A stretch of 64,000 nucleotides of DNA from an uncultured Gemmatimonadales bacterium. Its GTDB lineage: Bacteria > Gemmatimonadota > Gemmatimonadetes > Longimicrobiales > Longimicrobiaceae. The stretch covers positions 160,001 through 224,000 of the forward strand of contig OY970303.1 of assembly GCA_963716255.1 (NCBI GenBank), given 5' to 3'. Shown here one piece after another: positions 4,884-62,608 of the stretch (the stretch's first letter is position 1; the number at the start of each line of letters is the position of its first letter). The translations under genes were made by a program, and so were the position numbers. The notes under the pieces are model-generated. The model was not told where the DNA came from. It searched no databases and worked only from the letters and a program-made list of their open reading frames with translations.

Positions 4884-5011
4884 GGGCGTGCCCCCGGCTG
4901 GCGCCGGGGTCGAGCTTCGGCTCCGTAGGGCTGCAAACAACGCAGCCCAACGGAGTCGAGCCCCCGCAGACTGCGCGGGGTCTCGCCCCTTCGGGCCGAA
5001 ATCCCTCACGC
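4884..5011 (+). repeat. Family A structured intergenic element (candidate ncRNA/REP), copy 1
   Basis: GGGCGTGCCCCCGG...AAACAAC...AATCCCTCACGC; one of 10 copies. Confidence 0.9.
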
Positions 5012-5030
5012 GAGGCCGCCTCCCTCCTGC

Positions 5031-5264
5031 CTACTCCCCGTCCTCCGCGCCCTCCTCCACCTCCCCCGCCCCGCCGGCGTCCCCGCGGTCCGCGAGCCGC
5101 AGCGCCAGCCCCGCCACCAGCACGGCCACCGCCACCAGCACCGCCCAGTCCCGGCCCGTCAGCACGCCCCCGACGAAGAAGCCCGCGCCCAGGAAGAACG
5201 CCGCCATCTTGGCGTACAGGAAGCGGTCCGGGCCGGAGCGCCGGCGGCGGGAGGCGCCCAGCAC
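5031..5264 (-). CDS. Small membrane protein (2 TM)
   Basis: Two hydrophobic stretches; GTG abuts the stop of the upstream hydratase. Confidence 0.6.
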   Translation of the reverse strand: MLGASRRRRSGPDRFLYAKMAAFFLGAGFFVGGVLTGRDWAVLVAVAVLVAGLALRLADRGDAGGAGEVEEGAEDGE

Positions 5265-6038
5265 CTAGCGCGCTCCTTCCAGGAAGCGGCGCACGCCCGC
5301 CTGCATGTCGTCGGTCATGCGCGCGAGCACGTTGAGGTCGGCGCCGGCGCGGACGGCGGCCTCAAAGCCCATGGCGTCCGAGTGGTACAGGAGCCGCTTG
5401 GTGAGCTGCACCGCGGAGGGGCTGCGCTCCGCCAGCTCGGCCAGCAGGGCGTCGGCCTCGGCGGCGAAGGCGTCGTCCGCGACCACGCGGTTGACCAGCC
5501 CGATCCGCTCCGCCTCCGCCGCGGCGATGGGCTGGGCGCGCACGAGGAGATCGAAGGCGCGCTTCTCGGACACGTTGCGGCGCAGGATGGCCATCACCAT
5601 CGCCGGCACGAAGCCGATGCGCACCTCCGGGTAGCCGAACTGCGCGCCCTCGGCCGCGAGCACCAGGTCGCAGGCGGTCGCCAGGCCGCACCCGCCGGCC
5701 AGCGCGCGCCCGCGCACCAGCGCCACCACGGGCTTGCGCATGCGCCGCGGCAGGAGGAACAGCTCCGCCAGCCCCTCCACGTCGTCCAGGTTCTCCATCA
5801 CCCCGCCCTCGGCGATGGTGCGGAGCGCGGAAAGGTCCGCGCCGGAGCAGAAGTCCCTGCCCGCCCCTTCCACCGCCACCACCCGCACCTCGGGGTCGTC
5901 GTCCGCCGCGCGCAGCTCCGCCTTGAGCGCGGCGATCAGCGCGGCGTCCAGCGCGTTGCGCTTGTCCGGCCGGTTCAGCGTGAGCCGCGCGACGCCGCCC
6001 TCGCGCCGGACGAGAAGGACCTCCCCCCCGGCCGTCAC
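5265..6038 (-). CDS. Enoyl-CoA hydratase/isomerase (methylglutaconyl-CoA hydratase-like)
   Basis: LTLNRPDKRNAL, FCSGADL, ALAGGCGL, FGYPEVRIG; GTG overlaps upstream TGA. Confidence 0.88.
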   Translation of the reverse strand: MTAGGEVLLVRREGGVARLTLNRPDKRNALDAALIAALKAELRAADDDPEVRVVAVEGAGRDFCSGADLSALRTIAEGGVMENLDDVEGLAELFLLPRRMRKPVVALVRGRALAGGCGLATACDLVLAAEGAQFGYPEVRIGFVPAMVMAILRRNVSEKRAFDLLVRAQPIAAAEAERIGLVNRVVADDAFAAEADALLAELAERSPSAVQLTKRLLYHSDAMGFEAAVRAGADLNVLARMTDDMQAGVRRFLEGAR

Positions 6039-6397
6039 GCCACCGCCCCGGCCTCGCGGAGCGCCCGCTCCGCCAGCTCGTCCGGCACCTCCACCTCCAT
6101 GCGCAGGATGGCGGTGGAAAGCACCTTTCCCTGCGCGTCGGTCTTCAGCGACACGGTGCCGCCGCCGCCCAGCGCGTTGTGAAGGAGGAAGTTGAGCGCC
6201 TCCAGGTTGGGCAGCTCGAAGCGCTCCACGTCGCCGTGGACGATCCCCGCGAAGTGCTGCTTGACCCGCTCGGTGGTCAGCTGCTCCACCAGCACCGGGT
6301 AGTACTCCGGCCGCAGGGCGATCACCCCCACGTTGGCAGTGTCGCCCTTGTCTCCGGAGCGCGCGTGCGCGAGGTGCAGCAGAAGGACTCGTGCCAT
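6035..6397 (-). CDS. AtuA-like (acyclic terpene utilisation) small ferredoxin-fold protein
   Basis: HARSGDKGDTANVGV and LGGGGTVSLKTDAQGK. Confidence 0.8.
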   Translation of the reverse strand: MARVLLLHLAHARSGDKGDTANVGVIALRPEYYPVLVEQLTTERVKQHFAGIVHGDVERFELPNLEALNFLLHNALGGGGTVSLKTDAQGKVLSTAILRMEVEVPDELAERALREAGAVA

Positions 6398-6409
6398 GAA
6401 AGACCTGGA

Positions 6410-6460
6410 GGGAACAGGGAACAGGGTTTATCGGTTCACGCGAAGCGTGAAGCGCCACAG
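6410..6460. repeat. Family D: short (GGGAACA)n tract plus CGGTTCACGCGAAGCGTGAAGCGCCACAG hairpin
   Basis: Same composite recurs at 25481-25590. Confidence 0.7.
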
Positions 6461-6498
6461 GAAACAGCCTGCCACGACGGTGCGTTCCGGCGGGCTCC

Positions 6499-6660
6499 GT
6501 GTTCAGGGTCGGCCGGGGAAGGCTCCTCCGCCGGTGCGACACCCGAAGGGACTCGCAGAGCACTCGCCCACCGCCCGAGCAAGGGCAGGATCACGCTGGC
6601 TTCGAACAAACGCACCCCCCGCGGACCCTCCCCCGACCTCCCGGCGCAGTTCCCAGAACG
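6499..6660. repeat. Family C ~160-nt structured repeat, copy 1
   Basis: Near-identical to 44990-45153. Confidence 0.85.
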
Positions 6661-6689
6661 GAAACGGCCACGGCCGTGTCGTCGCTGTT

Positions 6690-6735
6690 CTCCCCCTCTC
6701 CCGCTTGCGGGGGAGGGGGCCGGGGGGAGGGGGCC
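6690..6735. repeat. Family B REP-like palindrome CCCTCTCCCGCTTGCGGGGGAGGGG
   Basis: Identical 46-nt copy at 25793-25838. Confidence 0.85.
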
Positions 6736-6739
6736 TCCC

Positions 6740-6867
6740 GCGTGAGGGATTCCGGCCCGAAGGGGCGAGACCCCGCGCAGTTTGCGGGGGCTCGACTCCG
6801 TTGGGCTGCGTTGTTTGCAGCCCTACGGAGCCGAAGCCCGACCCCGGCGCCAGCCGGGGGCACGCCC
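6740..6867 (-). repeat. Family A element, copy 2
   Basis: Reverse complement of the consensus, just downstream of guaB. Confidence 0.9.
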
Positions 6868-6900
6868 GAACCCGCAGTTAATAAGCCGTTCAAGAAGCCG

Positions 6901-8527
<1,627 letters not shown>

Positions 8528-8555
8528 CGCCGCGCCCCCGCCGCCCTCCCGCCTC

Positions 8556-9083
8556 CTATCCGCGCTGCCCCAGCAGGCTGCGGATCCCCGCCGGGAGGAA
8601 GGAGCCGGCGCGGTCCAGCGCCGCCAGCGCGGCCTCCAGGCTTTCCGGGTCGCCGTCCCAGTGGTCCAGCAGGACGTCGATGCCGGCGTTGTTGAGCAGC
8701 CGGTCCAGCGCCAGCGCGATCAGGTACACGTCGTCCACCTGCCCGATGACCGGGAGGTCCGGGAGCAGGTCCACCGGCAAGATCATGTAGCCCAGCGCGG
8801 CCAGGACGATGGCCTTGTCCAGCCGGGACACCCGCGGGTCCACGGCGAGCCTCCCCAGCAGCTTGGCGAAGCTGGGCAGGTCGCGCAGCACCTGCCGCAG
8901 GGTGTCGCCGCGGCCGCCTCCGCCGCCGCTGCTCCCCGCCTCGCGGTCCCGGCGGAAGCGGCGCAGCCGCGGGGCCGGCACGGGCGGGGTCTCCTCCTGC
9001 TCCTGCGGCTCGTCGCCGTCCTCGTCGTCATCGTCGTCGAGGTCGAAGCGGGAGCGGGGGACGTCGTCTCTGTACCTGGCCAT
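8556..9083 (-). CDS. YkvA/DUF1232-family membrane protein
   Basis: DPRV...ALGYMILPVDLLPDLPVIGQVDD. Confidence 0.85.
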   Translation of the reverse strand: MARYRDDVPRSRFDLDDDDDEDGDEPQEQEETPPVPAPRLRRFRRDREAGSSGGGGGRGDTLRQVLRDLPSFAKLLGRLAVDPRVSRLDKAIVLAALGYMILPVDLLPDLPVIGQVDDVYLIALALDRLLNNAGIDVLLDHWDGDPESLEAALAALDRAGSFLPAGIRSLLGQRG

Positions 9084-9089
9084 GAACCG

Positions 9090-9521
9090 TCAGGGGTTGC
9101 GGGGATCCGGCGCGGCCCCGCCCTCGGCGGGGCGGGGTCCGGAGGTGTCGCGGGGGAGGGCGGGCCGGCTCCCCGCCGGGTCCGCGCCCGTGCTGCCGGG
9201 CGCGGCCGGGGCGGCGACGCTCTTCACCCCTTCCTCCACCTCGCGCATCAGCGAGCGTCCCGCCTCCGCCAGCCCGGAGAAGACCCGGTCCGCGGTCCCC
9301 ACGGCGCCCAGGGTGCCGCGGATGGTGCGGATGGTCAGCCCCTGCCCGCGCATCTTGTCCTCCAGCAGCTCGCCGAACTTCTGCAGCGAGGAGGGGGACC
9401 GCGCGGTCTCGCGGGCGTACTTGGAGGCGAGGAACTCCACGTAGTCGAGCGCGTGGTACAGCTGCTCCTCGGGAAGCGCCTCGATGTGGCGCATGAGGCG
9501 TTGGCGGAGCACGTCGTGCAT
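9090..9521 (-). CDS. Hypothetical protein (DUF2281-like N-terminus)
   Basis: IEALPEEQLYHALDYVEFLASKY; RBS GGAGGA. Confidence 0.7.
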   Translation of the reverse strand: MHDVLRQRLMRHIEALPEEQLYHALDYVEFLASKYARETARSPSSLQKFGELLEDKMRGQGLTIRTIRGTLGAVGTADRVFSGLAEAGRSLMREVEEGVKSVAAPAAPGSTGADPAGSRPALPRDTSGPRPAEGGAAPDPRNP

Positions 9522-9782
9522 CGGTGTATCCTCCGTGAAGCGGGACCCGGGACGCGCAGAAACCATGCCGGGCACGGGCGCGCGGGTCCCCGGTGCAATC
9601 TGGACGCCGGGGGCGCCCCCCGCAACGTGCGGGCGCGGCGCACCCCCTGGTACGCGCGCCGGCGCCGCGTTGTTTCCCGGGCGGCCGGCGCATCCGCTCC
9701 GCGATTGACGCCGCCGTGCCGCGGGGCCAAGTTTCCCCCCTGGAGAGCGGTTCCGACGTCCACCCCGGTCCGGACTACGCAC

Positions 9783-10607
9783 GTGCCCTACCTTCCCCTT
9801 CGCCCCCTGGAGCCCGCGGCCGGGTCCGTGGAGCTGTACGACGCCTGGCTCGAGGAGCTGGGCGAAGCGCTGGAGCGCGGCGACGACCGGTGGGAGCTGT
9901 GCCGGCGCACGCTCACGGAGATCTTTCACCCACACCTCGTGGGCGCCGACCCGGCGAGCCTCCCCGTGGGCGCGCGCGCGGCGCTGGCGCAGATGGACGC
10001 GCGAAACGTCACGCTGGAGCCCGAATACTACGCCGAGTGCGACGACGCGCTCTTCCAGCCGCGCAAGCCGCTGATCTGGATGTGGCAGATGTTCGACCGC
10101 TCCCCGCTGGGCGGCAACGTCCACCTGGGGGTGCGCTTCCGCCGCCTGCTCGCGCCGCACATCTTCCGGCGGGTGGGGCGCAACTTCAAGGCCTTCCACT
10201 TCGTGGAGTTCTCCTTCGGGTACAACCTGGAGGTGGGCGACGACGTGGTGGTGCACCGCAACGTGCTGCTGGACGACCGCGGCGGGATCGTGCTGGGCGA
10301 CCGCGTGTCCATCTCGGACTACGCCAACATCTACTCGCACACGCACGACATCGTGGACCAGGCCAACGTGACCAACGCCGTCACCACCATCGGTGAGGGG
10401 GTGCGGATCACCTACCACGCCACGGTGCTGGCGGGGACCACGGTGGGGGAGAACGGGATGGTGGGGGCCATGGCGCTGGCGACCAAGGACGTGCGCCCCT
10501 ACCACGTCAACGTGGGCATCCCCGCCAAGTCGGTGCGGGTCAAGCCGAACGCGCCCCCCGAGGCGTACAAGACCACCCTCTGCGGCCCCGGCGCGGGAGA
10601 GGGGTGA
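9783..10607 (+). CDS. Hexapeptide-repeat (left-handed beta-helix) acyltransferase
   Basis: LEVGDDVVV, IVLGDRVSI, TIGEGVRI, VGENGMVGA, GIPAK. Confidence 0.85.
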   Translation: MPYLPLRPLEPAAGSVELYDAWLEELGEALERGDDRWELCRRTLTEIFHPHLVGADPASLPVGARAALAQMDARNVTLEPEYYAECDDALFQPRKPLIWMWQMFDRSPLGGNVHLGVRFRRLLAPHIFRRVGRNFKAFHFVEFSFGYNLEVGDDVVVHRNVLLDDRGGIVLGDRVSISDYANIYSHTHDIVDQANVTNAVTTIGEGVRITYHATVLAGTTVGENGMVGAMALATKDVRPYHVNVGIPAKSVRVKPNAPPEAYKTTLCGPGAGEG

Positions 10608-10609
10608 CG

Positions 10610-10647
10610 GCGGGGCCCGCGCGTGCGCGGGCCCCGCTCTTCTTTTT
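10610..10647 (+). terminator. Rho-independent terminator
   Basis: GCGGGGCCCGCGC/GCGCGGGCCCCGC stem followed by TCTTCTTTTT. Confidence 0.75.
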
Positions 10648-10679
10648 CACGGCAACGAGCTAACTGAAGGGATAGAAAG

Positions 10680-11846
10680 ATGGAGACCAGCGTGCTCGCC
10701 GGCGTCCCCGTGGAGGTGACCGACCCCGTCAACTCCCGGATCCTGGAGGTGTCCGAGGACCGGGTCCAGGGCTTCGTCGCGGAGCCCTTCGCGGAGATCG
10801 CCCGCCTGTCCGGCGTGGAGCTCGCCACGGTGCTGGAGCGGATCCGCGCCATGCTCGCCGCGGGGACCATCCGCCGCGTCCGCCAGACGCTGCTCGCCAC
10901 CAACCTGGCGCCCGGCGCGCTGGTGGCGTGGCAGGTGCCGCAGGAGCGGCTGGACGACGCCTTCACCTACATGTTCCGCGAGGACCCCTTCTCCGGGCAC
11001 GTGGTGATCCGCTCCACCGACGCGGAGACGCGCGGCAGCAAGTACCGCCTGTGGACCACCGTCAAGGTGCCGCAGGGCTTCTCGCTGGCGCGGCACTGCG
11101 AGGTGCTCGGGGCCAGGGTGGGGGCGGAATCGTTCAAGCTGCTCCCGGCGAAGGCGCTCTTCACGCTGGGCGTGGGGCACGTGCGCCGCCGCGGCATGGA
11201 GCCGGGGAGCCGCACCGACGCCCCCGGCGACGTGGTGGACACGCGCATCGTGGAGCTGGACGACCTCGAGTGGCAGGTGCTGGTGCCGCTGAAGCGCGAG
11301 TTCCGGGTGGAGGAGATCCACGAGAACCCCTGGGCGGCGCGGGCGGCGGAGGCCGGCGTGCCGCTGGACGAGTTCCTGCGCGTGGCGCGCTCCCTGAACG
11401 AGCGCGGCGTCATCGGCCGCTTCTCCACCTTCCTGGAGCACGTGAAGCCCTCCGCCACCGGGCACCGGGTGACGCGCTACAACGCGCTCTTCCACTGGCG
11501 CGTGCCGGCCGGGCGCGAGATGGAGGCGGGGATGGAGGTGGCGCGGCACCACGTGATGACGCACGCCTACTGGCGCGAGGGCGGGCCGGAGTTCGCCGGG
11601 GTCAACATCATGGGCGTGGCGCACGGCACCGAGAAGGAGATGGTGCTCGCCCACAAGGAGGCCATCGACCGGCACCTGGAAGAGGCGGGGATCCCGGTGG
11701 ACTACACCAACGTCTTCTGGGGCGGGCGCAGCGAGATCAAGCCGTCCGAGATCGCGCCCTCCGAATACCTGAAGTGGTGTGAGCGGGTGGAGGTGGACCC
11801 GGAGTCCATGCGGGTGCGTGCCGACGAGACGATCGCGAGTGCGTGA
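10680..11846 (+). CDS. Tandem Lrp/AsnC-like protein resembling fused siroheme decarboxylase (AhbA/B, NirDL-type)
   Basis: Two HTH+AsnC halves (PFAEIA...G-x-IRR; PWAARA...GVIGRF) with SGHVVIR and THAYWR motifs. Confidence 0.7.
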   Translation: METSVLAGVPVEVTDPVNSRILEVSEDRVQGFVAEPFAEIARLSGVELATVLERIRAMLAAGTIRRVRQTLLATNLAPGALVAWQVPQERLDDAFTYMFREDPFSGHVVIRSTDAETRGSKYRLWTTVKVPQGFSLARHCEVLGARVGAESFKLLPAKALFTLGVGHVRRRGMEPGSRTDAPGDVVDTRIVELDDLEWQVLVPLKREFRVEEIHENPWAARAAEAGVPLDEFLRVARSLNERGVIGRFSTFLEHVKPSATGHRVTRYNALFHWRVPAGREMEAGMEVARHHVMTHAYWREGGPEFAGVNIMGVAHGTEKEMVLAHKEAIDRHLEEAGIPVDYTNVFWGGRSEIKPSEIAPSEYLKWCERVEVDPESMRVRADETIASA

Positions 11847-11863
11847 ATTTTGACTGCGGGGCT

Positions 11864-11992
11864 GGGCGTGCCCCCGGCTGGCGCCGGGGTCGGGCTTCGG
11901 CTCCGTAACGCACGAAACAACCGTGCGTAACGGAGTCGAGCCCCGGCAAACTGCCGCCGGGTCTCGCCCCTTCGGGCCGTAATCCCTCACGC
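11864..11992 (+). repeat. Family A element, copy 3
   Basis: Consensus match 17 nt after the stop codon. Confidence 0.9.
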
Positions 11993-12107
11993 TGGGCTCG
12001 CGCTGACGTCCTCGGGGTCCCCGCCGTCGTATCTACGCCGCCTCCGGCGGCTTGCCGCGCCGGGCCTCGGGGTCCGGAGCTTCCCACACCCCTGCCTTCC
12101 CGCCGCC

Positions 12108-12860
12108 ATGCGCCGTGCTGCTCTCTCCCTGGTCCTGCTGCTGGGGTGCGCCGCCTGCGCTCCGGCTGCCGTCGCCCCCTCCGCGGCGCTGGACGCGCCG
12201 GAGCGCGTACTGGCGCGCGCCATCGAGCAGGCGGGGGGCGCGGCGGCGCTGGAGCGCGCCACCGCGCTGCTCTGGGAGGGCGACGCCACGGTGCACGCGG
12301 GCGGGCGCACGGTATCCATCACCGGGCGGTGGGCCGTACAGCCGCCCGACACCGCGGTGGTCTCCACCTGGGAGGCGAGCCGCGGGCCGGAAGCGGTGCG
12401 GCACCTGGTGGTAGCGCAGCCGCGCGGGTGGACGGTCCGGGGAAGCGCGTTCACGCCCATGCCCGCCCCCCTGCTCGCCAGCGAGCGCGAGGAATTCTAC
12501 CTGTACTCGGTGATGCGCCTGGTCCCGCTGCGCGATCCGGGTGTCACGCTCACCGCGGTCCCCGCCGACTCGCTGGGGCAGCGGGGGATCCGCGCGAGCC
12601 GCGCCGGACGGCCGGACGCCGAGCTGTTCGTGGACGGCGCCGGCCGGCTGGCGCACGTACGGATGGTGCTCCCCGACGGGGAAGCCGGCGCGCCCGTGCG
12701 GCAGGACGTGTGGCTGGAAGGCAGCATCGAGGCGGAGGGCGTGCGCTGGCCCCGCAGCATCCGCATCACGCAGGACGGCGCGCCCTTCTTCGACCTTGCG
12801 CTGCGCTCCCTGCGCGTGCAGCGGACCGTGAGCGACCCGCTGCTCGCCGGGCCGCGCTGA
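12108..12860 (+). CDS. Hypothetical lipoprotein
   Basis: Hydrophobic signal peptide with lipobox-like Cys; AI-x-x-AGG-x-x-AL N-terminal pattern. Confidence 0.7.
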   Translation: MRRAALSLVLLLGCAACAPAAVAPSAALDAPERVLARAIEQAGGAAALERATALLWEGDATVHAGGRTVSITGRWAVQPPDTAVVSTWEASRGPEAVRHLVVAQPRGWTVRGSAFTPMPAPLLASEREEFYLYSVMRLVPLRDPGVTLTAVPADSLGQRGIRASRAGRPDAELFVDGAGRLAHVRMVLPDGEAGAPVRQDVWLEGSIEAEGVRWPRSIRITQDGAPFFDLALRSLRVQRTVSDPLLAGPR

Positions 12861-12931
12861 CCGGACGCCGGGAAAGCGACCTGCGGACGCAAAGCGGGGC
12901 GGCACCCTCACCGGGCGCCGCCCCTTTCGTT

Positions 12932-13330
12932 CTACGTCCCCGGCCCGCTCCGCTCCCCCACCCCGGGCGGCCACCGGCCGGACGGGATGCGGCGCTCCGG
13001 CATCAGCCGGCTCGCGAGCAGCGGGCCGGCCACGTACGTCCAGCACGGCACGCCCTCCACGTCGACCTCCACCCGCTCGAACAGTCCCTCCGCCACGCCC
13101 TCGTACTCGTCCAGCCGGGTGAGCGCGTCCGCCGGGCAGCGCCACACCTCCCCTTCCACGGGCCCGCGGCCGTCCAGCACGAGCGCCGGGTAGCGGCCCA
13201 GGTCGTACAGCGTCCCCGCGACCGTGCCCGGGCCCACCCGCCGGCCATCGCGCAGCAGCCCCGCCGCGCCTCCGCCGCTGCGCAGCGTACCGTAGACGAA
13301 CAGGCGGACCGCGGGCGGGTCGCCCGTCAT
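12932..13330 (-). CDS. Gamma-glutamylcyclotransferase (AIG2-like)
   Basis: LFVYGTLR, YPALV, VEGEV, LDEYEG. Confidence 0.88.
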   Translation of the reverse strand: MTGDPPAVRLFVYGTLRSGGGAAGLLRDGRRVGPGTVAGTLYDLGRYPALVLDGRGPVEGEVWRCPADALTRLDEYEGVAEGLFERVEVDVEGVPCWTYVAGPLLASRLMPERRIPSGRWPPGVGERSGPGT

Positions 13331-13382
13331 CGCCGTGGTCCGTCCGCGACCGTGAGCGGTCGCCCTTCCGGGACCGGGCGCC

Positions 13383-15044
13383 TCAGCGGGAAGCCGGCCG
13401 GCGGAACTCGGCATCGGGGTTCCACGCCGGCAGCGTCGCCGCGTTCGCCAGCCACGTCCCGAAGTCCAGCACGATCTCGGAGAGCTGCACCGCGCCGGAC
13501 AGGTCCCAGTCGGGCCGGTACTCGTCGCCGGGCTGGTGGTAGCGGCGCGTGGTGTACTCCTCCTGCTGCTGCGCCCCCCACCCCGCCGGCCTCCCCACGA
13601 AGTCGTTTCCCGCCCCGATGGACACGGCCGGGATCCCCGCCTTGGCGAAGGAGAAATGGTCGGAGCGGTAGAAGCCGCCGCGCTCCGGGTGCTCGTCCGG
13701 CGAGATCTTCATCCCCGCGGAGCGGATGCGCGCGGCGAGCATGGGCCCCAGGGTGCTCTTGACGTCGCCCAGCACGCGCAGGTCGCTGGAGCGCCCGTTG
13801 AGGTTGCCGCCGTCCACGTTGAGGTTGGCGACGATGCTCGCGACGGGCACCGTGGGGTGCTGCGCGAAGAACTCGGAGCCCAGCAGCCCGGACTCCTCGG
13901 CGGTGACGAAGACGAACAGCTGGGAGCGCCTGGGCTTCTGCGGCGCGGCGGCGGCGACCCGCGCGACGGCCAGCATGTCGGCCACGCCGGAGGCGTTGTC
14001 CAGCGCGCCGTTGTAGATGGAGTCGCCGTTCGCCGCCGGGCCAATGCCCAGGTGGTCCCAGTGCGCGCTGAGGGCCACGTACTCGTCGCGGAGCCGCGGG
14101 TCGCTCCCGCGCACCACGCCCACCACGTTCTCGGACTTGAGGTTCTGCACGGCGCTGCGGAAGCCCACGTCCAGCGTGATGCCGGTGGGCACCGGGCGGA
14201 AGTCGCGCGAGGCGGCGCGCCTCACCAGGTCGTCCAGGCTCAGCCCCGCCTGGCCGAGGAGACCCTTCGCCGCGGTGTCGGTGATCCAGCCGCGGAACTG
14301 GAGCGGCGCGGGGAGCCCGGCGGCGCGCGGCACCATGCGCTGCTCCTTGGCCCACGAGCCCACCACCGTGGGCCAGCCGTAGCCGGCCTGCTCGGTGGTG
14401 TGGACGATGAGCATGCCGGCGGCGCCGCGGCGCTCGGCCTCCTCGAACTTGTAGGTCCAGCGGCCGTAGTAGGTCATCGCCCGGCCGCCGAACAGGTTGG
14501 GCTCGCCCGCGGGGGCGGGCGGGTCGTTGACCAGCACCATCAGGATCTTGCCCCTGAGGTCCACGCCCTTGAAGTCGTCCCAGCGAAACTCGGGGGCGGC
14601 GGCGCCGTAGCCCACGAACACCACCTCGGCGTTTGCCGCGGCGGCCGGCGATGCGGAGCCGGCCCACATCACCACGTCGTCCGGGTAGCGGAGCGCGCCG
14701 CTCGCCTTTCCGCCGGCGCTCACGCGGATGGTGGACGGGTCGGCGCCCACCACGTCGATGGGCACCTCCTGGAAGTAGCTGCCGCTCACGCCGGGCTCCA
14801 CGCCGGACGCGCGCAGCTGCGTGGCGATGTACTCCGCGGCGAGGCGGCCGCCGCGGGTGGCGGGGGCGCGGCCCTCCAGCAGGTCGGAGGAGAGGAAGCG
14901 GATGTGCGCGTCGATCTCCAGCGGCGTGATGCCGGTGCTGCTCGCGGCGGACGAGGCGGCGGCGCGCGGCGTGGCCTGCTGCGCGGCGAGCGGAGCCGCG
15001 CACAGCGCGAGGAGCCCGACGGAGCGGACGAGTGCTTGCTTCAT
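13383..15044 (-). CDS. Secreted M28 peptidase with PA domain
   Basis: Signal peptide; SAHWDHLG, NGALDNASG, TAEESGLLGS, RSDHFSF, YHQPGD. Confidence 0.92.
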   Translation of the reverse strand: MKQALVRSVGLLALCAAPLAAQQATPRAAASSAASSTGITPLEIDAHIRFLSSDLLEGRAPATRGGRLAAEYIATQLRASGVEPGVSGSYFQEVPIDVVGADPSTIRVSAGGKASGALRYPDDVVMWAGSASPAAAANAEVVFVGYGAAAPEFRWDDFKGVDLRGKILMVLVNDPPAPAGEPNLFGGRAMTYYGRWTYKFEEAERRGAAGMLIVHTTEQAGYGWPTVVGSWAKEQRMVPRAAGLPAPLQFRGWITDTAAKGLLGQAGLSLDDLVRRAASRDFRPVPTGITLDVGFRSAVQNLKSENVVGVVRGSDPRLRDEYVALSAHWDHLGIGPAANGDSIYNGALDNASGVADMLAVARVAAAAPQKPRRSQLFVFVTAEESGLLGSEFFAQHPTVPVASIVANLNVDGGNLNGRSSDLRVLGDVKSTLGPMLAARIRSAGMKISPDEHPERGGFYRSDHFSFAKAGIPAVSIGAGNDFVGRPAGWGAQQQEEYTTRRYHQPGDEYRPDWDLSGAVQLSEIVLDFGTWLANAATLPAWNPDAEFRRPASR

Positions 15045-19559: not shown

Positions 19560-19689
19560 GGGCGTGCCCCCGGCTGGCGCCGGGGTCGGGCTTCGGCTCC
19601 GTAACGCACGAAACAACCGTGCGTAACGGAGTCGAGCCCCGACGATACTGCTGTCGGGTCTCGCCCCTTCGGGCCGAAATCCCTCACGC
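19560..19689 (+). repeat. Family A element, copy 4
   Basis: Consensus match 17 nt after the stop codon. Confidence 0.9.
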
Positions 19690-25604: not shown

Positions 25605-25659
25605 CCTCACCCGGCTCGCTTGAGGCTCGCCACCCTCTCCCAAATCCTGGGAGAGGGGG
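25605..25659. repeat. Family B' REP-like double hairpin
   Basis: CCTCACCCGGCTCGCTTGAGGCTCGCCACCCTCTCCCA..TGGGAGAGGG; also at 45162, 54314 and 62361. Confidence 0.85.
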
Positions 25660-25792
25660 CAACGGCGGTGCCATGCGCAGACGCCGAGCTGGCGCCCGCG
25701 GGCCCCCACCCGGCGGCCCGAGAGCCGCCACCCTCCCCCGTGCCGGGGGAGGGGAATCTCCATGCTTCGATTCCTACCTTCAACGTGTCGTG

Positions 25793-25838
25793 CTCCCCCT
25801 CTCCCGCTTGCGGGGGAGGGGGCCGGGGGGAGGGGGCC
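25793..25838. repeat. Family B REP-like palindrome
   Basis: Identical to 6690-6735. Confidence 0.85.
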
Positions 25839-25862
25839 CTCGCGGACGCCAGCGCGGCGCCT

Positions 25863-25992
25863 GCGTGAGGGATTTCGGCCCGAAGGGGCGAGACCCCACG
25901 GCAGTATCGTGGGGGCTCGACTCCGTTGAGCAGCGTTGTTTGCTGCTCTACGGAGCCGAAGCCCGACCCCGGCGCCAGCCGGGGGCACGCCC
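25863..25992 (-). repeat. Family A element, copy 5
   Basis: Reverse complement of the consensus, between divergent genes. Confidence 0.9.
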
Positions 25993-45161: not shown

Positions 45162-45213
45162 CCCTCCCCCAGAATTGGGGGAGGGTGGCGAGCCTAAGCG
45201 AGCCGGGTGGGGG
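45162..45213. repeat. Family B' REP-like element
   Basis: CCCTCCCCCAGAATTGGGGGAGGGTGGCGAGCCTAAGCGAGCCGGGTG. Confidence 0.8.
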
Positions 45214-45240
45214 CCTCCCGCGGACGCCAGCACGATGCCC

Positions 45241-45369
45241 GCGTGAGGGATTTCGGCCCGAAGGGGCGAGACCCGCGGGCAGTTTCGCGGGGCTCGACTC
45301 CGTTACGCACGGTTGTTTCGTGCGTTACGGAGCCGAAGCCCGACCCCGGCGCCAGCCGGGGGCACGCCC
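45241..45369 (-). repeat. Family A element, copy 6
   Basis: Reverse complement of the consensus. Confidence 0.9.
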
Positions 45370-51075: not shown

Positions 51076-51106
51076 CGGAACGGCTGTACGGATTACGGCT
51101 GGGTCC

Positions 51107-51239
51107 GGGCGTGACCCCCGCTGGCGCGGGGGTCGGGCTTCGGCTCCGTAGGGCTGCAAACAACGCAGCCCAACGGAGTCGAGACCCGGCGGAAACTGCC
51201 CCGCCGGGTCTCGCCCCTTCGGGCCGTAATCCCTCACGC
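51107..51239 (+). repeat. Family A element, copy 7 (most diverged)
   Basis: Compensatory change in the first hairpin. Confidence 0.9.
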
Positions 51240-52731: not shown

Positions 52732-52780
52732 GCCGATCCAACCCCCGTCGAACCGCTCCCGCAAGGATCCCAACAGATCC

Positions 52781-52809
52781 TTTACAGGAGGAACGAGGCT
52801 TGATACGGT
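52781..52809 (+). promoter_or_regulatory. Sigma70-like promoter of the RHH gene
   Basis: TTTACA-17 nt-TACGGT with extended TG. Confidence 0.45.
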
Positions 52810-52843
52810 TGAGCGACGGGAACAGCCCCACGGGAGAGCTTCG

Positions 52844-53104: not shown

Positions 53105-53167
53105 AAAGCGCCGGTACCGAGCGACTGCGGGCCCACACCGGGCATGCTCGAAGTTCGGATTAAGGAT

Positions 53168-53203
53168 GAGGGGCACCGGCGCGCTGCCGGTGCCCCTCGT
53201 TTT
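53168..53203. terminator. Terminator between convergent genes
   Basis: GAGGGGCACCGGC/GCCGGTGCCCCTC-GTTTT. Confidence 0.75.
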
Positions 53204-53221
53204 CTCGACCTACCCGCCAGC

Positions 53222-54103: not shown

Positions 54104-54150
54104 CGAGCTTTTCCTCCGCCGTGGTTTGAAAAGATTGAACTACCGGGTTC

Positions 54151-54279
54151 GGGCGTGCCCCCGGCTGACGCCGGGGTCGGGCTTCGGCTCCGTAAGCCCG
54201 CAAACAACGCGGGCTAACGGAGTCGAGCCCCGGCAAACCGCCGCCGGGTCTCGCCCCTCCGGGCCGAAATCCCTCACGC
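54151..54279 (+). repeat. Family A element, copy 8
   Basis: Consensus match; antisense to flanking genes. Confidence 0.9.
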
Positions 54280-54313
54280 AGCTTCATACGTGGCTGCAAA
54301 AACCAGCAGTCGT

Positions 54314-54367
54314 CCCCTCTCCCAGAATTGGGAGAGGGTGGCGAGCCTAAAGCGAGCCGGGTGAGGG
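54314..54367. repeat. Family B' REP-like element
   Basis: CCCCTCTCCCAGAATTGGGAGAGGGTGGCGAGCCTAAAGCGAGCCGGGTGAGGG. Confidence 0.8.
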
Positions 54368-54401
54368 CCGCCGTTGAAGGCTGTTCCCTGTTCCCTGCCG
54401 T

Positions 54402-55217
54402 TCAGATCCCCAGCCGCTTCCGCCAGTCCGGCGCGCGCTGCGGGAGCCGCAGCTCGCCGTGCTCCAGGCGGTCCAGGAACGCCTCCAGCTTCTCCTGCGT
54501 GGAGCGGGAGACCGCGCCGAAGATCCCCCGCATCCCCAGGTACACCCCGCCGAGCACCGGCAGCGCGACGAGCGCCAGCGGGTCCACGATGGGCGTGGCC
54601 AGCACGGCCGTCACGATCGCCGCCGCGCCCCCGCCGCCGCCCAGCGCCGCGCCCGCCGCCAGGCCGCCGCGCACGTTCCCCAGGTCCGTGGACACCTCCA
54701 CGAAGCAGGTGTCCGCGTCGATCACAGACACCGCCACGTCCAGCGGCGTCACGTCCAGGAACGCCTGCCGCTCCTGCACCTTCCGGTAGGCGCGGCCCAT
54801 CACCGCGCCCATCCCCGTCCCCGCCACGTAGCGCGTGCGGTCCGGGAACCGGCGCTGCACCACCATGTACTCCACCGTCGTCAGGTACTGCTCCACCAGC
54901 AGCCCCACCGCGGCCGCCGGGCGGCGCACCGTGCGCGCCGCGAGCACCGTGCGCGGGCCCATCGTCCGGGCGAGCACGCCGCGCTCCGCGGGGGCGCGGC
55001 CGCGCACGTCGGCGATGGCGCGGCGCACCGTCGCCGGCTCCAGCCCCAGCTCCTTGCCGATGCGCAGCACCTCCGCCTCGGGGATCCCCTCCGGCTCGTC
55101 CGCCTCGCCGGCCGCCGTCTGCAGCTCCACGGCGCGGCGGATGATGGCCTCCAGCTCCTGGCTGGAGACCCGCCGCACCGGGAGGTTGCCGCCGGGGGGA
55201 GGAGTGCCTTCGCTCAT
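54402..55217 (-). CDS. Hypothetical membrane protein
   Basis: IIRRAVELQ...EVLRIGKELGL N-terminus; two C-terminal TM segments; ATGA overlap. Confidence 0.72.
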   Translation of the reverse strand: MSEGTPPPGGNLPVRRVSSQELEAIIRRAVELQTAAGEADEPEGIPEAEVLRIGKELGLEPATVRRAIADVRGRAPAERGVLARTMGPRTVLAARTVRRPAAAVGLLVEQYLTTVEYMVVQRRFPDRTRYVAGTGMGAVMGRAYRKVQERQAFLDVTPLDVAVSVIDADTCFVEVSTDLGNVRGGLAAGAALGGGGGAAAIVTAVLATPIVDPLALVALPVLGGVYLGMRGIFGAVSRSTQEKLEAFLDRLEHGELRLPQRAPDWRKRLGI

Positions 55218-55281
55218 CGCGTCTTCAGGAACGGAACGAGGAGGGCCGCCGCGCCCGGAACCCGCGCGGCGGCCCGCCCAC

Positions 55282-56493
55282 CTACGCCGGGAACGCCTCC
55301 ACCACCACCGCGATCCCCTGCCCCCCGCCGATGCAGGCCGTCCCCAGCCCGAAGCGCTTGCCCTGGCGCCGCAGCTCGTGCAGGAGGTGCACGGTGATGC
55401 GCGCCCCCGAGGCGCCCAGCGGGTGCGACACCGCGATGGCGCCGCCGGACACGTTGGTGCGCTCGCGGTCCAGACCCAGCTCCTTCTCCACCGCGCAGTA
55501 CTGCGAGCCGAAGGCCTCGTTGACCTCCACCAGGTCCATCTGGCCCACGTCCATCCCCGCCTTCTGGAGGGCCACGCGCGACGCCGGCACCGGGCCGATC
55601 CCCATGTGCTTGGGCTCCACCCCCGCGATCCCCCAGCTCACCAGCCGGCCCAGCGGCTTCACGCCGTTGCGGTCCGCCCAGGCGCCGCTGGCGATCACCA
55701 CCGCCGCCGCCCCGTCGCCGATCCCCGAGGCGTTGCCGGCCGTCACCGTGCCGCCCTCCTTGAAGTACGGCTTCAGCCTGCCCAGGCTTTCCAGCGTCGT
55801 GTCCGGGCGAATGTGCTCGTCCGCCGCGAACTGCGTCTCGCCCTTGCGGCTCCTGAGGGCGATGGGGACGATCTCCTTCTCGAAGCGCCCCTCCTGCCAC
55901 GCCTGGTGCGCGCGCTGCTGCGAGCCGTGCGCGAACTGGTCCACCGCCTCGCGGGTGATCCCGTAGTGGTCCGCCAGGTTCTCCGCGGTCACCGCCATGG
56001 AGCACCCCGCGAAGGTGTCCGTGAGCGCCTCCCACAGCGAGTCCTCGTAGAACTTGCCGGCCGGCCCCAGGCGCTGGTCGCCCCAGCGGGCGCCGCGGAC
56101 CACGTGCGGGGCCTGGCTCATGGACTCGGTGCCGCCGCACAGGGCGACCTCCGCCTCGCCCAGCATGATCTCCATGGCGCCGCTCACGATGGCCTGGAAG
56201 CCCGAGCCGCACAGCCGGTTGAGGGTCAGCGCCGGGACGTCGATGGCGAGCCCCGAGCGCAGCCCCACGTGCCGCGCCAGGTAGATGGCGTCGGCGGAGG
56301 TCTGCAGCGCGTTGCCGAAGACGACGTGGTTCACCTCCCCGGCGGGGACGCCGGAGCGCTCCAGCGCGCCCTTGGCGGCGAACACGCCCAGGTCGGTGGC
56401 GCTGAAGTCCTTGAGGGCGCCCCCGAAGGTGCCCATGCCGGTGCGCGCGGCGGAAAGGAAGACGACGTCGATGTCCTTGCCCTGGGTGCCCAT
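55282..56493 (-). CDS. Acetyl-CoA C-acyltransferase (thiolase)
   Basis: NRLCGSG, NEAF, SHPLGASG, CIGGGQG. Confidence 0.93.
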   Translation of the reverse strand: MGTQGKDIDVVFLSAARTGMGTFGGALKDFSATDLGVFAAKGALERSGVPAGEVNHVVFGNALQTSADAIYLARHVGLRSGLAIDVPALTLNRLCGSGFQAIVSGAMEIMLGEAEVALCGGTESMSQAPHVVRGARWGDQRLGPAGKFYEDSLWEALTDTFAGCSMAVTAENLADHYGITREAVDQFAHGSQQRAHQAWQEGRFEKEIVPIALRSRKGETQFAADEHIRPDTTLESLGRLKPYFKEGGTVTAGNASGIGDGAAAVVIASGAWADRNGVKPLGRLVSWGIAGVEPKHMGIGPVPASRVALQKAGMDVGQMDLVEVNEAFGSQYCAVEKELGLDRERTNVSGGAIAVSHPLGASGARITVHLLHELRRQGKRFGLGTACIGGGQGIAVVVEAFPA

Positions 56494-56801
56494 GCGGGAT
56501 CTTCTCCCTTGAGTGCGAGTACAAGTGAAAGGTTTCACAATATGACCGGCGCGGGGGCGGCTCGCAAGCCGCGGCCGGGTGGCGGAGGCGCACGGGAGGC
56601 GGGGGGTGGAACGATCCGCCCGACGCCCTTATCTTTCGACACCGCCGCATCATCCGGCGTGGCACCGGCCCATGGGGAGGCCGGTGTTTTTTGATTCCGC
56701 CTCCCCGCGTTTCACCGGCCGGCCGCCCCGGCCGATCCTTGATGAATGGCAGTCGCCCGCACCCGCGGCCTGCCTCCGCAAATCTGCATCGCAGTGCCCC
56801 C

Positions 56802-58751
<1,950 letters not shown>

Positions 58752-58955
58752 AACCCGAGCGGACGGCGGGCACGACACGGAGGCCCCGGGCGCCCTGCGT
58801 CCGGGGCTTCCGCGCGTCCGGCACCCCGGTGCTTGTGCCCGGCGCCCCTCCGGGATTACCGTTGATGCTCGGGGCGGCCCTCGCGGCGCGCCCCGCCCCC
58901 GCCCCGGCCGGACCCCGGCCCCGCCATCGATCCTCCCCCCAGAGGAGCTGGAACC

Positions 58956-59768
58956 ATGAGAGCCAGCAGCATCCCCGCGTACGAGGCCGGATTCAGCACC
59001 ACCCCCAGGGACTCGGACGGCAAGGCGTTCACGCTGAGCCCCTTCCAGGTCCAGGTCCCCGGCACCTCCGAGTCGTTCCAGGCGGTGTCGTGCCGGCCGG
59101 CCAGCGGCGACGAGAGCTACTTCTACAAGGAAGTCTTCCCCAAGAAGCGCATCGTCGTCCACTACACCGCCGGCTACCTCAAGGGCGACATCGCCGCCCT
59201 GACGAAAAAGGACAACCACGTTTCCGTGCCCTTCGTGGTGGCGCGCGACGGCACCGTGTACAACCTGTGGTCGTCGCGGTACTGGTCGTACCACCTGGGC
59301 AAGGGCGCCCAGGGCGGCAACCCCGAGATGAGCCGCAGCAGCATCGCCATCGAGCTGTCCAACCTGGGCTACCTGTGCCCCAAGGGCGACACCCTGGCCA
59401 CCTGCTCCGGCGACCCGTACTGCACGCTGGACGAGACCGACGCGTACCGCAAGCTGGACAAGCCCTTCCGGAGCTACAGCCACTACGCCACCTTCACCGA
59501 CGCGCAGTACCGCAGCCTGGGGAGCCTGCTGCGCTACCTCACGCGCACCTTCGACATCCCCGCCGAGTTCCTGCCGGAGCCGCAGCGCTACGACGTGTAC
59601 CCGGGGGTGGACAAGTTCCGGGGGATCACCACCCACGTGAACTACCAGCCCGAATCGTACGGCAAGTGGGACATCGGCCCGGCGTTCGACTGGGCGCGGG
59701 TGATCGCCTCGCTCACCACGGTGCCGCTGGCCGGCGTGGAGATTCCCGGGGGCGCGCCGGCGGTCTGA
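58956..59768 (+). CDS. N-acetylmuramoyl-L-alanine amidase (Amidase_2), no signal peptide
   Basis: IVVHYTAG, SYHLG, SIAIE, TDAQY, ITTH...KWDIG. Confidence 0.82.
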   Translation: MRASSIPAYEAGFSTTPRDSDGKAFTLSPFQVQVPGTSESFQAVSCRPASGDESYFYKEVFPKKRIVVHYTAGYLKGDIAALTKKDNHVSVPFVVARDGTVYNLWSSRYWSYHLGKGAQGGNPEMSRSSIAIELSNLGYLCPKGDTLATCSGDPYCTLDETDAYRKLDKPFRSYSHYATFTDAQYRSLGSLLRYLTRTFDIPAEFLPEPQRYDVYPGVDKFRGITTHVNYQPESYGKWDIGPAFDWARVIASLTTVPLAGVEIPGGAPAV

Positions 59769-59825
59769 GGCGAGGGTGTGCTTGCCGGGCGGGCCACGGC
59801 GTTCTAGCTTGCGGCGCGTGACAGG

Positions 59826-59857
59826 CCCGGACTCTGGAATCCAGGGTCCGGGTTTTT
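59826..59857 (+). terminator. Rho-independent terminator
   Basis: CCCGGACTCTGG/CCAGGGTCCGGG-TTTTT. Confidence 0.7.
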
Positions 59858-59885
59858 CGTTCGAACGGCATTTAACTGCGGAGTT

Positions 59886-60014
59886 GGGCGTGCCCCCGGC
59901 TGGCGCCGGGGTCGGGCTTCGGCTCCGTAGGGCTGCAAACAACGCAGCCCAACGGAGTCGAGCCCCGGCAAACGGCCGCCGGGTCTCGCCCCTTCGGGCC
60001 GAAATCCCTCACGC
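59886..60014 (+). repeat. Family A element, copy 9
   Basis: Consensus match, upstream of pyrD. Confidence 0.9.
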
Positions 60015-60061
60015 GGGTTTCCGTCTGCGTCCTCCAACGTCAACGGCTCGGTCGCACCGGC

Positions 60062-61162
<1,101 letters not shown>

Positions 61163-61175
61163 GCGGGAGGACCGC

Positions 61176-62264
61176 GTGATCCGCGCGGCCCGGTTCCTGG
61201 GCGGGTACCTGCGGCAGGAGCGGGTGCGCGTGCGCGAGGAGGAGGTCATCATCCCCATGCCGGACGGCGGCGAGGTGGAGGGCACCTTCTACCTCCCGCG
61301 CGGCGCGCGGCGGGCGCCCGGCTGGGTGGTGCTGCACGGGGTGAGCGTTCCCGGGCGCCGGCACGAGTCGCTGCTGCGCTTCTCGCGCGCCATGGCGGCC
61401 TCGGGCGCGGCGGTGCTGGTGCCGGACGTGCCCGCCTGGCGCGCGCTCCGGGTGCGCTCGGAAACGGCGCGCGCGGCGCTGATCCCGGCGACGGCGTACC
61501 TGCGCGGGCGGCCCGAGGTGCTCCCGGGCGGCGTGGGCGTGGTGGGCTTCTCGTTCGGCGCGACGCACGCGCTGATCGCCTCCACCGATCCCGGGCTGCG
61601 CGACGTGGTGCGCACGGTGGTGGGGTTCGGCGGCTACTGCGACCTGCGCCGGGCGATCGGCTGCATGTTCACGGGCGAGCACGAGTGGGACGGCCGCCGG
61701 TACGCGCTGGACCCGGACCCCTACGGCCGCTGGATCCTGGCGGCCAACTACCTCGCGGCGGTGCCGGGGATGGAGGGGATGGGCCGCGTCGCCCACGAGG
61801 CGCACGAGCTGGCGGCGGAGGCGGGGCGGCGCCGCACCTTCGCGGGCGAGGCGGACTACGACCCGCTCAAGGCCGCGGCGCGCGAGCGCCTTGGGGCGGA
61901 GGAGCGGGAGGTGTGGGACCTGCTGGCCCCGCCCTTCGGCGCGCCGGTGGGCGACCCGGACCGGGCGCGCGCCCTCGCGGACGCCCTGTCCGACGCGGTG
62001 CTGGCCGCCGACCCGGACCTGGACCCGCGCCGCGCCATGCCGGAGCTGCGCGCCCGGGTCGTCCTGGCCCACGGCGAGGCGGACCGGCTGATCCCCTTCA
62101 CCGAGTCGCTGCGCACGTACGCGGCGCTCCCGGAGCGGCTGGACCGCTCGGTCACCATCACGCGCCTGTTCGCGCACTCCACCGGCAGCTCCGCGGTGCG
62201 CGCAGTGGAGTACGGGGTGGAGGGGCTGCGCTTCTTCCAGCTGCTGCGGCGCGCGTTGCGGTAG
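61176..62264 (+). CDS. Alpha/beta hydrolase
   Basis: VLHG, GFSFG nucleophile elbow, HGEADRLIP, FAH; RBS GGAGG. Confidence 0.8.
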   Translation: MIRAARFLGGYLRQERVRVREEEVIIPMPDGGEVEGTFYLPRGARRAPGWVVLHGVSVPGRRHESLLRFSRAMAASGAAVLVPDVPAWRALRVRSETARAALIPATAYLRGRPEVLPGGVGVVGFSFGATHALIASTDPGLRDVVRTVVGFGGYCDLRRAIGCMFTGEHEWDGRRYALDPDPYGRWILAANYLAAVPGMEGMGRVAHEAHELAAEAGRRRTFAGEADYDPLKAAARERLGAEEREVWDLLAPPFGAPVGDPDRARALADALSDAVLAADPDLDPRRAMPELRARVVLAHGEADRLIPFTESLRTYAALPERLDRSVTITRLFAHSTGSSAVRAVEYGVEGLRFFQLLRRALR

Positions 62265-62360
62265 GGGGAACGGCAGTGCGGGCGTGCGGGAGTGAACGGC
62301 AGTACGAAGTACGCAGTACGTGAAAGCGCCCCGGCCGGGATCTCCCGGCGGGGGCGTCGG

Positions 62361-62415
62361 CCCTCACCCGGCTCGCTTGAGGCTCGCCACCCTCTCCCAA
62401 TTCTGGGAGAGGGGG
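62361..62415. repeat. Family B' REP-like element
   Basis: Near-identical to 25605-25659. Confidence 0.8.
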
Positions 62416-62479
62416 TCAACAGCGTGTGCTTCGACAGGCGCCCGGAGTTGGGGGTCGGCCGGGGGAGGGGCCTGCCGTC

Positions 62480-62608
62480 GCGTGAGGGATTTCGGCCCGA
62501 AGGGGCGAGACCCGGCGGCAGTTTGCCGGGGCTCGACTCCGTTGCAGACGGTTGTTTCGTCTGCTACGGAGCCGCAGCCCGACCCCGGCGCCAGCCGGGG
62601 GCACGCCC
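62480..62608 (-). repeat. Family A element, copy 10
   Basis: Reverse complement of the consensus. Confidence 0.9.

Follow-up and report, generated by a model that had tools for sequence, protein, structure and literature searches.

Ten copies of an intergenic element of about 130 nt, with strong base-pair covariation among them, are scattered through a 64,000-nt window of the genome of an uncultured Gemmatimonadales soil bacterium of the family Longimicrobiaceae (GCA_963716255.1, contig OY970303.1, positions 160,001 to 224,000). An earlier note on this window proposed either a structured non-coding RNA or a mobile hairpin element, and the question raised by the locus is which of these the repeat is. 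The analysis described here supports the mobile hairpin alternative. The repeat is a real, enlarged and highly amplified Flavo-1-type element that works like a repetitive extragenic palindrome (REP) or bacterial interspersed mosaic element (BIME) but is not one, and it likely folds and spreads as single-stranded DNA (ssDNA) rather than acting as an RNA gene. The genome holding the window, a single contig of 8.42 Mb, is called G000 below. Strands of copies are quoted for the GGGCGTG-first reading, and the strand that likely folds is its complement, the GCGTGAGGGAT-first strand.

An amplified repeat with the Flavo-1 core

A profile built from the ten window copies finds 859 matches in G000, of which 815 are near full length (413 on the + strand and 402 on the - strand) and 44 are partial. 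The repeat was found in all eight same-genus genomes, with 5-580 pattern matches each against 752 in G000. Sixteen other genomes of the family hold 0-2 pattern matches each, and 300 other genomes of the phylum hold 0-14 matches each to a looser pattern, near its control, against 836 in G000 (genomes G010 and G186 enter tallies only). Among the matches listed, the named records with the long form belong to Longimicrobiaceae and other Gemmatimonadota.

The ten copies start where the earlier note placed them, on the strands it gave, and are 128-133 nt long; its five central stem alleles and their counts (GGGCTGC four times, ACGCACG three times, and GAGCAGC, AGCCCGC and GCAGACG) and the G-C to C-G swap in the first hairpin of copy 7 are likewise present. 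Two of its generalizations hold within the window but not genome-wide, since the loop described as invariant AAACAAC has the variants AAACGAC, AAACTAC, ATACTAC and ATAAAAC elsewhere, and the central stem described as always perfectly paired is perfectly Watson-Crick in 642 of 710 parsed copies. When the ten copies are aligned to a six-helix structure, 99.1% of 450 cells are paired and both sides have changed in 11 of 45 pairs, a level of pairing reached by 0 of 500 shuffles; slid registers pair 32-50%, and one pair, at alignment columns 34/121, is broken in three of the ten copies. Fold z-scores of the copies against shuffles range from -3.9 to -5.5 on both strands.

Read on the GCGTGAGGGAT-first strand, the repeat consists of a closing helix GCGTG/CACGC, an A, a helix GGGAT/AGCCC with an A.G mismatch, then GA and a short arm. 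The GGGAT/AGCCC helix leads into a four-way junction; among its three arms, one shows the motif again, as GAGAC/GGCTC followed by GA. A fuzzy leader of about 22 nt lies on the GGGCGTG side; its consensus is the same in both gene contexts, and no repeated 16-mers extend past 40 nt there. The CACGC side has a variable tail: about half of its first 60 nt is made up of repeated 16-mers, a share that drops below 5% by 340 nt. The mismatch-plus-GA motif is conserved across phyla. The closing helix takes different forms across lineages (GCGTT 108, GCGTG 68, GCGTC 14, and others), with the complement present each time, and in five divergent G000 copies it reads GCGAA/TTCGC, four of which also change GGGCT/ATCCC to GCGCT/ATCGC. 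This covariation of long-range helices, both within G000 and across lineages, argues for selection on the whole fold. A second repeat family in G000, with 182 heads (for example at C1:83.8k, 124.1k and 230.6k) and none in the window, is made of three tandem GAG(A/C)C-stem-AAAC-stem-G(G/T)CTC arms; this arm module is common to the Flavo-1-type repeat.

The resemblance of the termini to the Bacteroidota Flavo-1 motif, with extra arms, that the earlier note suggested is borne out by the ends. They match seed rows, although not on the strand that the note favored, and there is no Rfam match. As given in the available text of Weinberg 2010, the Flavo-1 seed rows read GCGUGA GGGAUA ... AUAGCCCGACC, the complement of the note's strand (PMC2864571), and the terminal boxes of the repeat, GCGTKAGGGAT...AGCCCGACC, are as in these rows. 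Also shared are the NN-GAT/AGC-NN helix followed by GA, which is seen in seed rows, model alignments and window copies, and an intergenic location in both orientations with unknown function. Unlike Flavo-1, the repeat is about 130 nt long against a 76-position model, replaces an unbranched rod with purine-rich internal loops by a four-way junction, includes a closing helix and a short arm that the model omits, and occurs in a Gemmatimonadota host in 815 copies, with evidence that points towards DNA. An Rfam scan recovered no window copy at the gathering level, none at E<=10 over positions 4800-12100 and, with 150 of 200 candidates scored, none genome-wide at that E value; the RF01705 cut-off of 42 bits is not reached by the copies, and 10 of 11 hand-picked short members found by their shared ends score 27.5-36.9 bits on that model. 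With a model (R1) made of 15 short members, the four top-ranking matches are window copies on the GCGTGAGGGAT strand, at E values of only 0.2-0.4. The repeat shares the Flavo-1 core motif and is not a formal member of the family. The Flavo-1 literature, in the texts available, offers no mechanism, although an earlier description may exist in the Weinberg or bioRxiv supplements, and a literature search with the terminal 11-mers of the element returned unrelated titles only.

Exchange of arms and the choice between DNA and RNA

The number of copies on one closed contig makes the exchange of arms measurable. In the 710 of 859 matches that could be parsed, the perfect central stems fall into 19 alleles. 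The two sides of one stem are linked, with a mutual information (MI) of 3.09 against 0.21 when shuffled, while adjacent arms lie near the shuffle level (MI 0.17 against 0.15 and 0.24 against 0.21, with values as high in 26 and 16 of 300 shuffles). The arms of these copies occur in 638 distinct combinations, chromosomal neighbors share alleles at the random rate, and in 13 copies the two stem sides are drawn from different common alleles. The covariation that first drew attention to the repeat does not represent independent change in each copy, as hundreds of copies carry shuffled combinations of only about 19 paired arm alleles.

Different arms also occupy the same site in close relatives. Genome G001, whose flanking genes are about 94% identical to those of G000, has 43 orthologous sites with one copy in each genome, and the orientation is the same at all 43. 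Of 32 such copies that were parsed in both genomes, none are identical; nine share the central stem, eight the second arm and two the first 12 tail bases. This sharing exceeds the random rates (0.11 and 0.07), yet falls far short of that predicted from 94% gene identity. Recurrent conversion with whole arms as units is inferred, and the copies have likely been overwritten repeatedly, through short-patch gene conversion in which entire hairpin arms are exchanged. Gains and losses of copies also occur, with no target duplication. Between G000 and G001 there are six G000-only sites (two with truncated heads in G001), three G001-only sites and two unequal ones, and between G000 and G008 there are 18 shared, 13 G000-only, three G008-only and two unequal sites. 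One site is a clean gain against an empty site: at G000:C1:1964285, leader, core and two bases lie directly past a stop codon, with no duplication.

The loops bear on the choice of strand and of nucleic acid. The earlier note took the GGGCGUG-first strand to be the RNA on account of a cUUCGg loop and G-U pairs, a proposal that is unsupported: Rfam has Flavo-1 on the other strand, the other strand folds better, the wobbles are unbiased, and the loops are triloops. The supposed UUCG hairpin folds as GCCC-CUUC-GGGC, and the loops that look like UNCG are TNC triloops. In 65 of 198 distinct members the first arm has such a TNC loop, and of these 44 are perfect in the triloop register, none in the cUNCGg register and 21 in neither; variants closed by T-A retain TNC without the G that UNCG requires. 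Wobbles in the central stem number 24 and 27 on the two strands. Read from the other strand, TNC loops become GNA triloops, the loops of cGNAg DNA mini-hairpins, and the G000 loops (n=710) include cGCCAg 463, cGCAg 86, cGTCAg 23 and cGACAg 18, as well as cGAAGg 546 and cGGAGg 79. As described in the accessible parts of two studies, triloops of the d(GNA) type have unusually high stability in DNA, where d(cGNNAg) and d(cGNABg) are among the stable loops obtained by selection (PMC3201870; PMC13037366). The fit of the G000 loops to these motifs favors DNA over RNA. The consensus fold, computed from 125 parsed of 200 sampled copies, favors the GCGTGAGGGAT strand with RNA parameters (-73.3 against -68.6 kcal/mol) and with DNA parameters (-42.1 against -35.9).

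Gene context bears on the same choice. According to our own gene calls, the 815 copies lie between convergent genes (284), in tandem gaps in sense (255) or antisense (228), and between divergent genes (48); the repeat is thus enriched between convergent genes and depleted between divergent ones (p=9e-46), and the sense/antisense split in tandem gaps is even (p=0.24). The same indifference of orientation to transcription is reported for Flavo-1 in Flavobacterium psychrophilum, in the portion of that work available (PMC9723704). Five soil metatranscriptomes (unstranded contigs) hold 5-8% of the repeat words, with depth peaks over copies, a pattern expected if many copies are collapsed.

A structured non-coding RNA or untranslated-region element amplified in the genus, as filed by Rfam ('Gene; sRNA', a small RNA) and proposed in the earlier note, is an unlikely explanation in our judgment. 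It would account for the strong fold and covariation and for the compensated closing helix across lineages, and many copies would be read through, as 539 of 815 have their GGGCGTG end towards the stop codon of a co-oriented gene, at a median distance of 26 nt. Such an RNA is at odds with the unbiased sense and antisense placement, with the DNA-type loop registers (162 four-base loops include one cUNCGg, two GNRA on the note's strand and five GNRA on the other strand), and with the presence of both orientations in microviruses that have all their genes on a single strand.

One-sided tails, a DUF559 nuclease and insertion sequences

The variable tail is one-sided and made up of other repeats. 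Of the 815 copies, 353 have GC-rich, BoxC-like palindromes no more than 250 nt away on the CACGC side, and none has them on the other side; of 554 intergenic palindromes, 469 follow a copy on its CACGC side at a distance of up to 450 nt. Among gaps of at least 200 nt, 338 of 762 that contain a copy have palindromes, against 27 of 1166 that lack both repeat families. The repeat also forms 26 close inverted doublets, which enclose palindrome modules. The tail, but not the rest of the element, resembles the BoxC/PIT/intrastrand triplex motif in its pattern CCCTCNCCC...GGGNGAGGG...GGG(N)GAGGG and in its variable intergenic sites, as far as that motif is described in the text available (PMC4666352); the TMECO consensus has four strict and 168 relaxed matches in G000. 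Unlike BoxC, the tail adjoins a Flavo-1-type head on one side, and its palindromes also bracket a nuclease gene, whereas the same source, in its available part, reports no mobility genes adjoining the E. coli motifs.

That gene encodes a stand-alone DUF559 protein, a homologue of PDB 3HRL, and is bracketed by inverted copies of the same palindromes in G000 and relatives. Strong DUF559 matches are present in G000 and seven of eight same-genus genomes, and six of the same-genus proteins, encoded at or near the orthologous site, are 54-60% identical to that of G000; this low identity suggests cassette turnover. We also think it unlikely that a DUF559 (Vsr-like) nuclease cassette is the mobilizer in this lineage, with the core traveling with, or serving as landing pad for, the BoxC-like palindromes. 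The bracketed gene, the one-sided palindromes, the distribution of strong matches and the apparent turnover all fit such a role. Vsr-type enzymes read mismatch-like features, and the core has conserved mismatches. However, the DUF559 gene itself has no bordering core copy, 462 of the 815 copies lack a palindrome in the nearest 250 nt, and one clean gain is tailless. Eight genomes of the same family with strong DUF559 matches hold only 0-2 core copies, and outside Longimicrobiaceae the tail palindromes are found in 0 of 189 members and a DUF559 gene nearby in one of 282 loci.

Two insertion sequence (IS) families target this repeat exclusively. An IS481-like element interrupts the same bond of the repeat in eight of eight cases (four full copies and four short derivatives), an IS4-like element is in the AAAC loop of the second arm in four of four cases, and the single IS5-like case is also in the repeat (family names are our reading of Pfam domains and ends). 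REPs are known IS targets, according to the part of the source available (PMC1525189).

Several other protein families were considered as mobilizers. The domain of the REP-associated tyrosine transposase (RAYT), PF01797, is found in one of eight same-genus genomes and not in G000, and the core repeat is absent from all 26 Y1 loci of relatives, where the RAYT genes carry other repeats. RAYT-type genes in other Longimicrobiaceae genera (L340, L343, L345, L346, L351-L353, L357, L358, L360) each have their own inverted REP-like flanks, unrelated to the repeat. Reverse transcriptases were rejected as mobilizers, as PF00078 (in three of eight same-genus genomes) does not track the repeat, and a retro-element such as a group II intron derivative, a retron or an element like a short interspersed nuclear element (SINE) was rejected as well, G000's single reverse transcriptase lying in an unrelated low-GC island. 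This island (L374, G000:C1:1015.3k-1017.7k) holds that gene and an upstream small open reading frame (ORF); the enzyme is probably of a defense type. GIY-YIG nucleases were set aside, with one or two matches per same-genus genome, in long frames and none in stand-alone genes. One hundred single genes lying between two repeat copies resemble ordinary or IS genes, judged from N-terminal sequence alone, and bacterial loci with the repeat have no common neighbor gene.

The features are located in Table 1. The small window ORF preceding copy 1 reads like ribosomal protein S21, and is presumably rpsU-like; similar sequences occur at other places in relatives.

Table 1. Location of repeat copies and associated features (positions without prefix are those of the window, G000:C1 positions those of the genome)
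Feature	Position	Strand	Context
Core copy 1	4884..5011	+	Downstream of rpsU-like ORF (4579-4797) and that ORF's hairpin
Core copy 2	6740..6867	-	33 nt past IMPDH stop; long tail of shared modules
Palindrome, BoxC/triplex-motif-like, in copy 2 tail	6694..6731	.	
Core copy 3	11864..11992	+	Stop codon 17 nt upstream
Core copy 4	19560..19689	+	Stop codon 17 nt upstream; orthologous G008 site without copy
Core copy 5	25863..25992	-	
Copy 5 tail	25633..25853	-	GCTGGCGTCC linker and three BoxC-like palindromes: 25797-25834, 25731-25753, 25633-25657
Core copy 6	45241..45369	-	
Copy 6 tail	45162..45231	-	Linker and palindrome module resembling that left of the DUF559 gene at G000:C1:125.2k
Core copy 7	51107..51239	+	G-C to C-G swap in first arm; second arm longer
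Core copy 8	54151..54279	+	Opposite-strand start codon 47 nt from GGGCGTG end
Palindrome, BoxC-like, in copy 8 tail	54315..54338	.	
Leader example, ~22 nt, fuzzy, before copy 9	59864..59885	+	AACGGC/AACTGC-type hexamers, then GGGTTC
Core copy 9	59886..60014	+	
Core copy 10	62480..62608	-	
Palindrome, BoxC-like, in copy 10 tail	62390..62413	.	
Divergent copies with compensatory long-range helix changes	G000:C1:619766, 620078, 6138822, 7798383, 7840340		
DUF559 nuclease gene, stand-alone	G000:C1:125.2k-125.6k (L419); homologues L417-L432		Between inverted BoxC-like palindromes
IS481-like element	G000:C1:3217669-3218995 (L655); ~300-bp derivative, e.g. C1:443471-443770		3-bp duplication, one orientation, 8/8
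IS4-like element	G000:C1:4228519-4230077 (L656)		AAAC loop of second arm, 4/4

Short forms, remaining alternatives and a proposed ssDNA element

The shared-end pattern also finds short forms in 80 viral loci and at least 125 genome loci, the latter mostly in Bacteroidota but also in Fibrobacter and a few Proteobacteria; 84 plasmid records match, and Rfam at the gathering level missed all 20 viral loci tested. The short forms occur on the conjugative plasmid p5482 (two copies), in inoviruses, in Bacteroidota microviruses and in tailed phages. Within three clades of phage Rep or terminase relatives, the core is present in 22 of 28, 12 of 51 and 7 of 80 loci. Two microvirus clades carry it on opposite strands, and it is deleted in the close relatives L500, L501, L507, L557 and L568; the clade-A microvirus matches L516, L534 and L544 may be chance. 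This patchy occurrence, with deletions, is more in keeping with a dispensable mobile element than with a fixed origin. In several phage groups the element lies upstream of the small terminase, but a role in phage packaging was rejected, as only the 7 of 80 relatives have it. In the tailed-phage clade L575-L654, the roughly 400 nt upstream of the small terminase are hypervariable and hold varied structured modules, one of which is a Flavo-1-like unit. In three Flavobacterium species (L097, L122, L149) the element is at the same site, with unlike interiors in the two compared; the site is presumably the trp gene cluster.

These phage data bear on another alternative, that the repeat is a domesticated DNA signal, such as a single-strand (primosome-type) priming site or a protein-binding site, kept for the benefit of host or phage. 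Microviruses need a hairpin for second-strand priming, as stated in the available text of one study (PMC9865509), and the element, also present in inoviruses and on p5482, is found there in replicons that all have an ssDNA phase. Its retention just upstream of Rep in most genomes of one microvirus clade (the 22 of 28), with compensatory changes, keeps the priming-signal idea open. The opposite strands in two clades, the deletions in close relatives, the rarity among related tailed-phage loci and an expansion confined to one genus among those sampled nevertheless make such a signal quite improbable.

Still harder to accept, and in our view very doubtful, is that the perfect pairing is a mutational by-product of quasi-palindrome template switching and ordinary recombination, with no selection on higher-order fold. 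Template switching perfects hairpins without selection, and the changes are indeed nearly all full Watson-Crick swaps inside local hairpins. The long-range helices of the five divergent copies covary too, however, and the mismatch-plus-GA motif is kept across phyla. Integron attC sites have the consensus RYYYAAC ... GTTRRRY with an invariant AAC/GTT triplet, and an attC identity was rejected, as the order is reversed here and the triplet varies (GCGTG, GCGTT, GCGTC, GCGAA); integrase genes were not searched.

Known mobile repeats offer closer comparisons. Like REP, BIME and REPIN (REP doublet forming hairpins) elements, the repeat has hundreds of extragenic copies in both orientations, is enriched past stop codons and between convergent genes, has conserved stem mismatches, and forms close inverted doublets (the 26 noted above) and mosaic arrays with specific IS targets. 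Measured by the defining features of REPs, as given in the portion of PMC8266576 available, it differs in having no 20-50-nt palindrome with a GTAG-type tetranucleotide (from sequence and flank logos), in being a multi-junction unit of 130 nt with exchangeable arms, and in a genome without a RAYT gene. Miniature inverted-repeat transposable elements (MITEs) and non-autonomous IS derivatives are likewise short, high-copy and intergenic and vary in presence between relatives. Unlike these, however, the repeat has, as judged from flank logos and empty sites, terminal inverted repeats limited to a 5-bp closing helix and no target duplication; it also has fuzzy ends and no cognate transposase.

We therefore consider it probable that this high-copy intergenic Flavo-1-type repeat is a non-autonomous, REP/BIME-like element of folded ssDNA whose copies convert one another. 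In the mechanism that we propose, DNA opening during replication or transcription would allow the GCGTGAGGGAT-first strand to fold into a three-way junction of GCGTG/CACGC, GGGAT/AGCCC (with its A.G mismatch, then GA) and the short arm, and this three-way junction would carry the four-way junction repeating the GAY/RGC+GA motif. A structure-reading nuclease or repair factor acting in trans might nick at or near a junction, and the folded donor strand could then anneal through the invariant boxes, so that arms would move as units. In rarer events, priming at short homologies, often stop codons, may create new sites, or flanking palindromes may be drawn in.

Several observations weigh against this folded-ssDNA explanation. 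First, no mobilizing protein was found in the searches described, and the link to DUF559 breaks down outside this family. Second, the favored strand is also the better RNA fold, and energy alone cannot separate DNA from RNA. Third, copies on leading and lagging strands number 385 and 430, with no clear bias, although a lagging-strand ssDNA mechanism might give one. Fourth, the discordant sites in the G001 and G008 comparisons are mostly replacements with few clean insertions, and orientation is kept at all shared sites (43 of 43 with G001, 18 of 18 with G008), so positions are fairly stable. Finally, the evidence for conversion consists of allele patterns only.

If this explanation is correct, an Rfam family has been misfiled, and a widespread repeat would be spreading and recombining without a known REP transposase. 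Flavo-1 has been an orphan 'sRNA' since 2010, and the repeat family gives sequence-level tests that point to DNA. This work adds a test of loop register, the finding that shuffling takes place at the level of arms, the two IS families exclusive to the repeat, its link on one side to BoxC-like palindromes and DUF559, and a survey of phages. The family also carries a caution for covariation-based RNA discovery, as few alleles shuffled among DNA repeats can yield perfect compensatory stems. More tentatively, Flavo-1 may be, rather than an RNA, the visible part of an unrecognized class of minimal mobile ssDNA elements, in Bacteroidota, Fibrobacterota, Gemmatimonadota, plasmids and ssDNA and double-stranded DNA phages, that would spread without RAYT or reverse transcriptase, exchange folded arms combinatorially and, in this genus, seed one-sided arrays served by a DUF559 nuclease. 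The one-sided BoxC-like/DUF559 link offers a concrete candidate enzyme and substrate.

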